Part shown: in pieces, positions 19,463 through 61,647 of the stretch
Numbering within the stretch: position 1 is the first letter of the stretch
Layout of the letters: every line of letters begins with the position of its first letter
Notes under the pieces: model-generated
What the model was told of the DNA's origin: nothing
The model's input: only the letters and a program-made list of their open reading frames with translations
Databases searched by the model: none
DNA from: Escherichia coli
Lineage (GTDB): Bacteria > Pseudomonadota > Gammaproteobacteria > Enterobacterales > Enterobacteriaceae
Assembly: GCF_016026235.1 (NCBI RefSeq)
Contig: NZ_CP065613.1
Reading direction: 5' to 3' (one strand)
Length of the DNA: 64,000 nucleotides
Made by a program: the position numbers and the translations under genes

Positions 19463-19570
19463 TTCCCACTCCCGAAGACCACGGTTGAATGAACGTCCTG
19501 TTCCCGGTTGCTAACAAGGCGTCCTGCCCGGTTAAAAGCCCCCCGCCGCAGCGGAGGGCAAATGGCAACC

Positions 19571-21706
19571 TTACTCGCCCTGTTCAGCAGCCGGAGCTTC
19601 CGGTGCTGCAGCAGGTTGAGACTGCTCAGTCGCTTCTTTAATGCTCAGACGGATACGGCCCTGGCGATCAACTTCCAGAACTTTCACCGGTACTTCCTGA
19701 CCCATCTGCAGGTAATCGGTCACTTTCTCAACGCGTTTGTCAGCGATTTGAGAGATGTGGACCAGACCTTCTTTACCGCCGCCGATGGCAACAAATGCGC
19801 CAAAGTCAACGATACGGGTCACTTTACCAGTGTAGACGCGGCCCACTTCGATTTCTGCAGTGATCTCTTCGATACGACGAATAGCATGTTTCGCTTTCTC
19901 GCCGTCGGTCGCTGCGATCTTCACAGTACCGTCATCTTCGATTTCGATGGTAGTGCCAGTTTCTTCGGTCAGGGCACGGATAACAGAGCCGCCTTTACCG
20001 ATAACGTCTTTGATCTTATCCGGGTTGATCTTGATGGTATGGATACGCGGTGCGAACTCAGAGATATCGCCACGCGGCGCGTTGATCGCCTGTTCCATTA
20101 CGCCCAGGATATGCAGACGCGCACCTTTAGCCTGGTTCAGCGCAACCTGCATGATCTCTTTGGTGATACCTTCAATTTTGATATCCATCTGCAATGCAGA
20201 GATACCCTCGCGGGAACCCGCAACTTTGAAGTCCATATCGCCCAGGTGATCTTCGTCGCCCAAAATGTCAGACAGTACAACGTAGTTGTCGCCTTCTTTC
20301 ACCAGACCCATTGCGATACCCGCAACGGCAGCTTTGATCGGCACACCTGCGTCCATCAGCGCCAGAGACGCGCCGCACACGGAAGCCATAGAAGAGGAAC
20401 CGTTGGATTCAGTGATTTCAGACACAACACGTACGGTGTACGGGAATTTGTCCATATCCGGCATGACTGCCAGCACGCCGCGCTTCGCCAGACGACCGTG
20501 ACCAATTTCACGACGCTTCGGAGAACCGACCATGCCGGTTTCGCCTACGGAGTACGGAGGGAAGTTGTAGTGGAACAGGAAGGTATCGGTACGTTCGCCC
20601 ATCAGTTCATCAAGAACCTGCGCGTCACGAGCAGTACCCAGCGTTGCGGTAACCAGCGCCTGCGTTTCACCACGGGTGAACAGCGCAGAACCGTGAGTAC
20701 GCGGCAGCACGCCAGTACGCACATCCAGACCACGGATCATATCTTTTTCACGACCGTCGATACGCGGTTCGCCTGCCAGTACGCGGCTACGAACAACGTT
20801 TTTCTCGATAGCGTGCAGAATTTCACCCAGTTCGTTTTCGTCCAGGGTTTCGTCTTCAGCAAGCAGCGTCGCGATGGTTTCAGATTTGATGACATCAACC
20901 TGCGCATAACGCTCTTGTTTGTCGGTGATGCGGTAAGCATCGCTCAGGCGAGCTTCAGCCAGTGCAGCAACGCGCGCGTTCAGCGCTTCGTTTACCGGCT
21001 CCGGCTGCCAGTCCCAACGCGGTTTACCGGCTTCTTTCACCAGTTCATTGATGTTCTGAATAACAACCTGCTGTTGTTCATGACCGAACACTACTGCGCC
21101 CAGCATCTGGTCTTCGCTCAGCAGTTCAGCTTCAGATTCAACCATCAGTACAGCGGCTTCAGTACCCGCAACAACCAGATCCAGTTTGCTCTCTTTCAGC
21201 TCGTCCTGAGTCGGGTTCAGTACGTACTGGTCATTGATGTAACCTACGCGGGCAGCACCAATCGGGCCATTGAACGGAATACCAGACAGAGACAGTGCTG
21301 CGGAAGCACCAATCATCGCGACGATATCCGGGTTAACCTGCGGGTTAACAGAAACCACGGTGGCGATAACCTGAACTTCGTTGACGAAGCCTTCCGGGAA
21401 CAGCGGGCGAATCGGGCGGTCAATCAGACGCGCGATCAGGGTTTCGCCTTCGCTTGGACGACCTTCACGACGGAAGAAGCTACCCGGGATACGACCAGCA
21501 GCGTAGGTACGCTCCTGATAGTTAACGGTCAGTGGGAAGAAGTCCTGACCTGGTTTGGCTTTTTTCTGGCCAACAACGGTAACAAATACCGCGGTGTCAT
21601 CCATGCTAACCATAACAGCGGCAGTAGCCTGACGAGCCATCATGCCGGTTTCCAGAGTCACGGTGTGTTGGCCGTACTGGAATTTACGAACGATCGGATT
21701 AAGCAA
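19571..21706 (-). CDS. pnp: Polynucleotide phosphorylase
   Basis: 711 aa from a UUG start (caa at 21704-21706); two RNase PH domains plus KH and S1 domains. Confidence 0.9.
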
Positions 21707-21906
21707 TGTAATATCCTTTCTCTTTCTTAGACAGTACCTTACGGCACTGGTGTTAATACCCGATCTTCTGCGCATCCTCGCGACTAATGACAACCCTAAC
21801 CCAGCTCTATGTGGGTAAAGCCTCTCATTAGCCGCGCGAACCTCTGCAACGGAAGATCATTCATAGCAACAATACATTAGTTTCCAGTGAATTGCTGCCG
21901 TCAGCT

Positions 21907-21936
21907 TGAAAAAAGGGGCCACTCAGGCCCCCTTTT
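21907..21936 (-). terminator. rpsO rho-independent terminator
   Basis: Hairpin aaggggcc/ggcccctt with a T-run on the minus strand, just downstream of rpsO. Confidence 0.6.
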
Positions 21937-21952
21937 CTGAAACTCGCAAGAA

Positions 21953-22318
<366 letters not shown>

Positions 22319-23793: not shown

Positions 23794-23867
23794 GGCCTGA
23801 TAAGACGCGCCAGCGTCACATCAGGCAATCCATGCCGGATGCGGCGTAAACGCCTTATCCCGCATGG
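23794..23867. repeat. REP/BIME element
   Basis: ggcctgataagacgcgccagcgtcacatcaggc and gccggatgcggcgtaaacgccttatcccgcatg between infB and rbfA. Confidence 0.5.
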
Positions 23868-28545: not shown

Positions 28546-28751
28546 GCCCACCCCCAAGACATAAAAAAAGGGCCTAAAGCCCAGTTATTCTGTAGTCAGA
28601 TAACAAAAAACCCCGATAAATCGGGGCTTTATATAACTGAACCCTATAACCGCAACTGCGGTCTGGAGCACTTTCCAGAAGGATTTTTTCAAATCCCACT
28701 ACGAAGGTCGAAGTCTTCACAGTATATTTGAAAAAGGACTCTAAGGGAAAG

Positions 28752-28828
<77 letters not shown>

Positions 28829-31730: not shown

Positions 31731-31817
31731 TGGTACCGAGGACGGGACTTGAACCCGTAAGCCCTATTGGGCACTACCACCTCAAGGTAGCGTGTCTACC
31801 AATTCCACCACCTCGGC
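31731..31817 (-). tRNA. leuU: tRNA-Leu (anticodon GAG)
   Basis: The reverse complement reads GCCGAGGTGGTGGAATTGGTAGACACGCTACCTTGAGGTGGTAGTGCCCAATAGGGCTTACGGGTTCAAGTCCCGTCCTCGGTACCA, an 87-nt class II tRNA. Confidence 0.9.
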
Positions 31818-38374: not shown

Positions 38375-38621
38375 TTGTTATACCTCTTGAATATTCCTGA
38401 TGGGGCAAGTCTTCACCCACCCCGGCTGTTCGGCCTGCCCGGCATAACTCCTCACCGGGACCAGAAGCAAAAAAATACCGACCCAGGTACAAGTCCCAGG
38501 TCAGCTACAATTCACATTTTGATAGTCATTTTACCCTGAAGTTCCCGAAGGGTCATCGTTTACTTTATAGGGCGTTGCGCCGTAGTATGACGGCTCGATT
38601 CCAGGTTGTTAGCGCGAGATT

Positions 38622-61526: not shown

Positions 61527-61647
61527 CGTGCGGCCTGAAAAACAGTGCTGTGCCCTTGTAACTCATCATAATAATTTACGGCGCAGCCAAGATTTCCCTG
61601 GTGTTGGCGCAGTATTCGCGCACCCCGGTCTAGCCGGGGTCATTTTT
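61527..61647 (+). ncRNA. arcZ: Hfq-dependent small RNA ArcZ
   Basis: GTGCGGCCTGAAAAACAGTGCTGTGCCC...CACCCCGGTCTAGCCGGGGTCATTTTTT matches the ArcZ sequence as I remember it; its terminator overlaps the arcB stop on the opposite strand. Confidence 0.85.

Follow-up and report, generated by a model that had tools for sequence, protein, structure and literature searches.

The rpsO-pnp intergenic region

The window analysed here is a 64,000-nt stretch of the Escherichia coli chromosome. The genes rpsO and pnp both lie on its minus strand, with truB, rbfA and infB upstream of rpsO, and hence the antisense RNA SraG is encoded on the plus strand. According to both the list of open reading frames and the RefSeq annotation, positions 21707-21952 are exactly the 246-nt intergenic region between the two genes. 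A sequence-only reading of this DNA had placed the interval between the rpsO terminator and the UUG start of pnp; this was exact at the pnp end, whereas at the other end the interval begins at the rpsO stop codon, the terminator being situated inside it (Table 1).

Table 1. Features of the rpsO-pnp region in window coordinates, listed from rpsO towards pnp.
Feature	Position	Strand	Remarks and basis
rpsO (ribosomal protein S15)	21953-22222	-	ORF list; RefSeq rpsO
rpsO stop codon TAA	21953-21955	-	upper boundary of the intergenic region, 1 nt outside it
Bidirectional intrinsic terminator	21909-21936	both	T1 of rpsO (-), SraG terminator (+)
sraG (b4449), primary antisense sRNA	21721-21936, 216 nt	+	RefSeq; Rfam; cRT-PCR in PMC5029454
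P2 -10 hexamer TATTGT, putative	21869-21874	-	inside the conserved block CTAATGTATTGTTGCT (21880-21865)
P2 start of the monocistronic pnp mRNA	21861-21864, best 21864 (A)	-	published RNA length and cut geometry
Long RNase III hairpin	21762-21858	-	basal helix (GAUCUUC/GAAGAUC), middle helix and core R
Core R	21774-21841, 68 nt	-	-35.2 kcal/mol, z = -6.0, 0/200 shuffles as good
RIII1, putative	cut 21826/21825, after +39	-	position from PMC5029454 mapped on the fold; depends on +1 = 21864
RIII2, putative	cut 21788/21787, after +77	-	position from PMC5029454 mapped on the fold; depends on +1 = 21864
GGA motif, candidate upstream CsrA site	21775-21777	-	within the nearly invariant CGCGAGGAUG of the 3' arm of R
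Hairpin 2 (CAGUGCC-GUAA-GGUACUG)	21732-21749	-	between R and the SD
pnp Shine-Dalgarno (SD) AAGGA	21714-21718	-	AAGGA-like motifs in almost all 79 species
PSraG -10 hexamer TAATAT	21709-21714	+	in the spacer from the pnp SD to the start; its last base is 7 nt upstream of +1 (21721)
pnp UUG (TTG) start codon	21704-21706	-	RefSeq pnp; TTG in 79/79 loci

Over 701 nt (21600-22300) the sequence is 100% identical to that of E. coli K-12 MG1655, the MG1655 coordinate being the window position + 3,289,462, and therefore the experimental mapping done in K-12 applies to it base for base. The K-12 region is the same locus, alike in gene order, terminator, hairpin, SD and UUG start, with no difference between the two. 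The 246-nt region is present in 5425 of 5426 complete E. coli genomes, and its identity is at least 99% in 5175. A single complete genome has no match to 21707-21952; one match is located on a plasmid, and at least one genome has two copies. Nothing contradicts the identification of the region as the rpsO-pnp control region of E. coli, and we are nearly certain that it is the same as in K-12. It is an ordinary locus, whose pnp leader and SraG are already known in detail; the work on the leader (Portier 1987, Jarrige 2001, Carzaniga 2009, Park 2015) is summarised in PMC5029454.

The list of open reading frames has pnp starting at an in-frame upstream TTG at 21793 (740 aa). This start was rejected, as both RefSeq and the conservation across species put it at 21706 (711 aa). 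A mirror reading frame of 740 aa, which runs antisense to pnp on the plus strand (19508-21730), is almost certainly a codon-usage artefact. The other Rfam matches above threshold in the window are the S15 leader, naRNA4, the rimP leader, two tRNAs, the greA leader and ArcZ (22166-22280, 23794-23864, 28563-28663, 28755-28828, 31734-31817, 38470-38591 and 61528-61635), all of them expected in this part of the E. coli chromosome.

For the comparative analysis we collected 80 Enterobacterales loci and one Orbales genome. To keep the leader itself from biasing the sample, we used the S15 protein as the anchor, and the counts below refer to the 79 loci in which both genes could be identified. All of them have TTG as the pnp start, and the spacer varies from 239 to 366 nt.

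Terminator T1 and promoter P2

On the minus strand, T1 reads AAAAGGGGGCC-UGAGU-GGCCCCUUUUUU, the stem being followed by UUUUUU; on the plus strand the same segment reads GGGGCC-ACUCA-GGCCCCCUUUU, followed by CUUUU and ending at 21936. It thus consists of a GC-rich stem between an A-run and a T-run, providing each strand with its own U-tract, as is characteristic of a bidirectional terminator. The folding energy is -19.9 kcal/mol on the minus strand (z = -3.6) and -15.7 kcal/mol on the plus strand (z = -2.1). The terminator scan reported the plus-strand stem (21915-21931) and did not report the minus-strand version, although the latter is clear both on direct reading and on folding.

A consensus promoter scan of the window flagged neither P2 nor the SraG promoter (PSraG), the -35 boxes being weak or absent, and both promoters were placed by conservation and published start sites. 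The hexamer TATTGT is exactly retained in 46 of the 79 species, the flanking T/TG/T columns keep their bases in over 90%, and the position of the hexamer fits a transcription start at about 21864. The in vitro pnp RNA spanning P2 +1 to nucleotide 79 of the ORF is given both as 237 nt and as 1-234 (PMC5029454). A length of 237 or 234 nt implies a UTR of 158 or 155 nt and hence +1 at 21864 or 21861, so that the uncertainty is about 3 nt. We prefer 21864, because only this start turns the published cuts at +39 and +77 into a 2-nt stagger; with +1 at 21861, the value corresponding to the '1-234' wording, the cuts do not form a staggered pair, and this variant was rejected. The positions of the P2 -10 hexamer and of +1 given here are our best estimates.

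The long hairpin of the pnp leader

In the MFE structure of the P2 leader, the core R is extended by two further helices to 21858-21762, with 37 pairs in total. The resulting hairpin is mostly double-stranded over at least about two helical turns and lies between P2/T1 and the pnp start. Folding of the minus strand is well below that of shuffled sequences, with z = -5.2 for 263 nt and z = -3.9 for the P2-initiated leader, and none of 200 shuffles folds as well as R, hairpin 2 (described below) or the whole leader. The sequence-only reading had considered the 246-nt region to be the autoregulatory leader of pnp with a hairpin cleaved by RNase III, and had proposed RNA folding as a check. Both the stable extended hairpin on the minus strand (for the energy of its core, see Table 1), which is conserved, and the cleavage mapped on the identical K-12 sequence (PMC5029454) bear this out.

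The pairs of the E. coli hairpin were projected on a plain MAFFT alignment of the 79 species, which had not been fitted to the structure. In this alignment 91.8% of the cells are paired, and compensatory changes are observed in 19 of the 37 pairs. The covariation score is 0.206, compared to 0.123 in shuffles, none of 500 of which reach it, and to at most 0.079 in slid controls. The covariation is located in the basal helices and in the apical part, and approximately 15 pairs around the presumed cut sites are invariant or nearly so in the 79 species. Near-invariance is silent on pairing, but it shows a strong sequence constraint around the cuts. Such a constraint is to be expected, since RNase III recognition, the PNPase-sensitive duplex, the GGA motif and the antisense RNA all overlap there.

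The hairpins might also be chance folds of a GC-balanced intergenic region, devoid of function. Apart from the truism that every sequence has some fold, nothing speaks for this explanation, and the shuffling result, a covariation exceeding all 500 shuffles and all slid controls, and the cleavage shown experimentally (PMC5029454, PMC4681348) speak against it; we consider it extremely improbable.

RNase III cleavage and CsrA binding

RNase III cuts R twice, at RIII1 and RIII2, which lie 39 and 77 nt downstream of P2 +1 (PMC5029454), and paired RNase III sites between rpsO and pnp have also been detected by RNA-seq (PMC4681348). In the genome-wide RNase III map (PMC6212723), pnp is absent from the main text. 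We compared the published sites with the fold, the other check proposed for the hairpin. With +1 at 21864, the G at +39 (21826) is paired to +76 and the A at +77 (21788) to +38. Cuts after +39 and +77 would then leave a 3' overhang of exactly 2 nt, with a U-A and a G-C pair between them, and hence form a staggered pair. This matches the rule derived in vivo by Altuvia et al. 2018, according to which the two positions between the cuts are paired, usually including a G-C (PMC6212723). We infer the exact cut positions in this way, with an accuracy of about 3 nt; if RIII2 is at 21788/21787, the processed pnp mRNA would begin with UUAGUCGCGAGGAUG.

After the RNase III cut, PNPase degrades the small upstream fragment of the duplex, and RNase E inactivates the message (PMC5029454). 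CsrA has two sites in the pnp leader and binds them only once RNase III and PNPase have processed the leader, one of the sites overlapping the SD (Park 2015, via PMC5029454). GGA occurs exactly twice in the processed leader, at 21777-21775 and 21716-21714, and both motifs are highly conserved. The second motif is part of the SD and corresponds to the reported SD-overlapping CsrA site (PMC5029454). The first one, whose columns are invariant or nearly so in the 79 species, is paired until the 5' arm of R is removed. Judging from the sequence, the upstream CsrA site is probably this GGA; its sequestration in the 3' arm of R would account for the need for processing before CsrA binds.

One could suppose that the leader serves mainly for translational control independent of RNase III, by competition of PNPase with ribosomal protein S1, with cleavage being secondary. 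Indeed, PNPase continues to repress its own translation when RNase III is missing, and its catalytic activity is not needed for that (Carzaniga 2015, via PMC5029454); moreover, hairpin 2 and the AU-rich tract adjoining the SD are conserved and have no known role in RNase III action. However, pnp mRNA is stabilised and rises strongly in rnc mutants (PMC3082872), Fontaine et al. name RNase III as the primary actor (PMC5029454), and the nearly invariant core of R surrounds the presumed cut sites. We therefore regard a secondary role of cleavage as unlikely and retain the RNase III-dependent mechanism.

The antisense RNA SraG

The Rfam family RF00082 (SraG) matches positions 21765-21936 of the plus strand with 164.3 bits, the gathering threshold being 50 (E = 5.4e-30). 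The match covers the full length of the model (1-177 of 177) and has the same position and strand as the annotated gene. Thus SraG is indeed encoded here opposite to pnp, as had been noted from the literature when the sequence was first read; at that time it was left undelimited, whereas it can be delimited to 21721-21936, the 216 nt taking up most of the interval. It lies between rpsO and pnp, has the opposite direction of transcription, and is bounded by a promoter, whose function is known from PMC5029454, and an intrinsic terminator, which together define the 216-nt transcript.

The Rfam model covers only the older form of 172-177 nt (21765-21936), whereas the 5' end of the primary transcript is at 21721, 44 nt upstream of that form. 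This additional 5' part, which is the functional one (Fontaine 2016, PMC5029454), is outside the model. The start was mapped by Fontaine et al. 2016, who found by cRT-PCR that SraG begins 42 nt upstream of the older 5' end of Argaman (PMC5029454). SraG ends at the rpsO terminator read in reverse, and Northern blots and cRT-PCR in K-12 yielded two forms, of 216 nt and roughly 190 nt (PMC5029454). Mutation of the PSraG -10 box abolishes the 216-nt SraG (PMC5029454). The hexamer TAATAT is exact in 25 of the 79 species, spread over several families, and its conservation cannot be credited to SraG alone, because it is situated in the AU-rich spacer of the translation start.

SraG pairs with the pnp leader, blocks the 30S toeprint via its 5' part and induces a new RNase III cut in vitro (PMC5029454). 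The 5' 42 nt are essential for repression (Fontaine et al., PMC5029454). Overexpression of SraG lowers pnp mRNA, and its loss raises pnp mRNA and PNPase only about 1.3-fold (PMC5029454). The mirror hairpin of SraG is also cut by RNase III in vitro (PMC5029454). No trans targets of SraG were found in E. coli, whereas one was reported in Yersinia pseudotuberculosis (PMC5029454).

A second hairpin upstream of the Shine-Dalgarno sequence

On the minus strand the elements of the leader follow in the order R, a single-stranded spacer, hairpin 2, an A-rich tract and the SD. Hairpin 2 is situated opposite the 5' 42 nt of SraG, and the two GGA motifs of the processed leader, the only ones there, flank it. 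In E. coli its folding energy is -10.9 kcal/mol on the minus strand (z = -4.2) versus -5.9 kcal/mol on the plus strand (z = -1.0).

A hairpin is found at this place in almost every species; its sequence is wholly different between genera, and its position is fixed. The center of the loop is at a median distance of 34.5 nt upstream of the TTG, with the interquartile range of 33.5-36.5 in the 79 species. When the best hairpin in the segment between R and the SD was compared with shuffles, the median z was -2.2, and z was below -2 in 44 of 79 cases. RNAalifold did not find hairpin 2 in the plain MAFFT alignment of the segment from R to the start codon (64 species), because the arms were out of register, the sequences being wholly different.

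We then built a covariance model from 18 Enterobacteriaceae sequences that align well, and 76 loci were aligned to it. In this model-guided alignment 90% of the cells are paired, compensatory changes are observed in 11 of 11 pairs, the number of doubly changed cells is 165 compared to 43 +/- 8 in shuffles, and the covariation score is 0.438, compared to 0.147 in shuffles and at most 0.09 in slid controls. Since an alignment of this kind leans towards the structure that was modelled, it is the shuffle z-scores and the fixed position that support hairpin 2 independently. In the accessible literature, which did not include the primary mapping papers, we found no role assigned to hairpin 2.

Strand asymmetry of the two hairpins

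A structured region transcribed on both strands could be conserved on account of the pnp leader, of SraG, or of both. The alternatives differ in the expected pairs: a G.U pair on one strand becomes an A.C mismatch on the other. In every one of the 79 species, R folds more stably on the pnp-mRNA strand, the mean energy being -34.9 kcal/mol versus -21.6 kcal/mol on the opposite strand (in E. coli, -35.2 versus -21.2 kcal/mol), although the 79 comparisons are not independent, as the species are related and the invariant lower stem is common to all of them. The invariant core of R contains conserved G.U pairs, for example, a G.U in 76 and a U.G in 73 of the 79 species. In hairpin 2 we observed 74 G.U against 9 A.C. 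For R the direction is unambiguous, the mirror hairpin of SraG being its weaker complement; both leader hairpins are selected on the pnp-mRNA strand.

The Rfam match to SraG exceeds the threshold on the antisense strand in 78 of the 79 loci; the only locus without it is the Orbales representative, Candidatus Schmidhempelia bombi (L050). The model scores mostly the R hairpin and the shared terminator, and hence a match in another genome shows the presence of the pnp leader more than that of the sRNA.

SraG could thus be largely a passenger, that is, a real but weak transcript whose conservation and structure throughout the family mirror the constraint on the pnp mRNA, so that an Rfam match elsewhere would be no proof of a functional sRNA. 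This is what one would expect from the stability of R in all 79 species, from the energies of both hairpins in E. coli, and from the G.U bias, the conserved G.U pairs of R being A.C mismatches in SraG. It also agrees with the exact TAATAT hexamer occurring in only 25 of 79 species within the AU-rich spacer of translation initiation, with the approximately 1.3-fold effect of SraG removal and with the lack of E. coli trans targets (PMC5029454). On the other hand, the promoter, terminator and ends of SraG have been mapped, and the -10 mutation abolishes it; the pnp toeprint is blocked by SraG in vitro, and overexpressed SraG reduces pnp mRNA; in Yersinia pseudotuberculosis a trans target has been reported (all in PMC5029454); and the relatedness of the species and the invariance of the lower stem, mentioned above, limit the weight of the 79 comparisons. 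We consider a passenger SraG a serious possibility, to which we would give slightly less than even weight.

As to hairpin 2, we tentatively suggest, with more doubt than confidence, that it functions as an element of its own in the pnp leader, under selection on the mRNA strand, with its pairing and its distance to the start (about 34 nt) fixed throughout the Enterobacterales and its sequence varying freely, and that the conservation of the SraG family mainly reflects the pnp mRNA.

Lineage-specific changes of the spacer

In the Erwiniaceae (Erwinia, Pantoea, Tatumella), there are approximately 62 extra nucleotides between the rpsO stop codon and T1 (loci L023, L029, L042, L046, L053, L061-L063, L067-L070, L073, L077, L078 and L081, at about 1771-1835 in each). 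The insert is predicted to form a hairpin with a basal stem of 10-11 bp, whose sequence varies between genera with the pairing kept (z = -2.8 to -5.8 in four cases); judged by these folds, it is a lineage-specific structured insert.

Insertions of 60-100 nt into the spacer, leaving the flanking conserved blocks intact, were observed in L008 (about 1870-1970), L012 and L052 (about 1990-2060). In a Pseudocitrobacter MAG the insertion is upstream of the P2 -10 hexamer; in Hafnia paralvei, downstream of the P2 -10 block and upstream of the long hairpin; and in Sodalis sp., between R and hairpin 2.

The apical loop of R tolerates large insertions as well. The largest, of about 125 nt, is in Serratia sp. 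DD3 (L054, about 1905-2035), and insertions of about 25-50 nt are present in Dickeya oryzae, Budvicia and a metagenome-assembled Enterobacteriaceae genome (L031, L059, L064). The Serratia insert keeps the region a single long hairpin (-84.6 kcal/mol), and it presumably resembles an ERIC repeat (GAGTGAGTCCCTAGGAGC...GTGACTAGGGTGAACGAG).

Affinibrenneria salicis has two rpsO-pnp loci on the same contig, NZ_VYKJ01000001.1 (L020 and L021, at 394245-397511 and 677618-680884). They are in the opposite orientation, about 283 kb apart, and have the same scores in every search, and hence represent either a large inverted duplication or an assembly artefact.

Model of regulation and related systems

The observations may be combined with the published experiments into the following scheme, where the identity to K-12, coordinates, folds, covariation, strand bias and Rfam membership were established in this analysis, and the cleavage, the roles of PNPase, CsrA and RNase E, and the ends and effect of SraG are taken from the literature. 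The pnp transcripts would arise either by read-through of T1 from the rpsO promoter or by initiation at P2 (about 21864), both carrying the leader hairpin 21858-21762. RNase III would make a double staggered cut in the hairpin, probably at 21826/21825 and 21788/21787; PNPase would then remove the small upstream fragment from the remaining duplex, exposing the 5' end and the GGA motif. CsrA could then bind the GGA motif and the SD, blocking translation, and RNase E would inactivate the message, thereby closing the autoregulation loop. SraG (21721-21936), driven from the promoter in the SD-to-start spacer of pnp and ending at the terminator read in reverse, would pair perfectly with the leader; its 5' 42 nt, adjoining the SD, would block 30S binding, and the duplex would create an extra RNase III site, with a small net effect on PNPase, of about 1.3-fold.

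Similar arrangements are known elsewhere. In the E. coli rnc leader (rncO), RNase III cuts a hairpin in the 5' leader and thereby destabilises the downstream mRNA, as in pnp (PMC8708148). The difference is that the rnc mRNA encodes the cutting nuclease itself, whereas in pnp RNase III only primes the process, and the sensing step is the removal of the small fragment by PNPase. In Streptomyces coelicolor and others, the same gene pair is cleaved by RNase III upstream of pnp (PMC4681348, PMC8708148), and antisense RNAs RliD in Listeria and ref41 in Enterococcus are encoded at rpsO-pnpA, the same locus as SraG (PMC5029454). In sequence, the rpsO-pnp systems of other phyla are homologous neither to the enterobacterial leader nor to SraG.

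PNPase is one of the major enzymes of RNA degradation, and the pnp leader is a textbook case of layered post-transcriptional control, with five players, RNase III, PNPase, CsrA, RNase E and an antisense RNA, acting within 246 nt. What is new here is only mildly so: the strand asymmetry, together with what it implies for the Rfam SraG family, and the strongly covarying hairpin 2. The former is a caution for annotation, as a match to a covariance model of an antisense sRNA can be driven entirely by a structure under selection on the opposite strand. If the suggestion on hairpin 2 is true, this hairpin could set the geometry for CsrA bridging, bar decay dependent on the 5' end, or gate the pairing of SraG.
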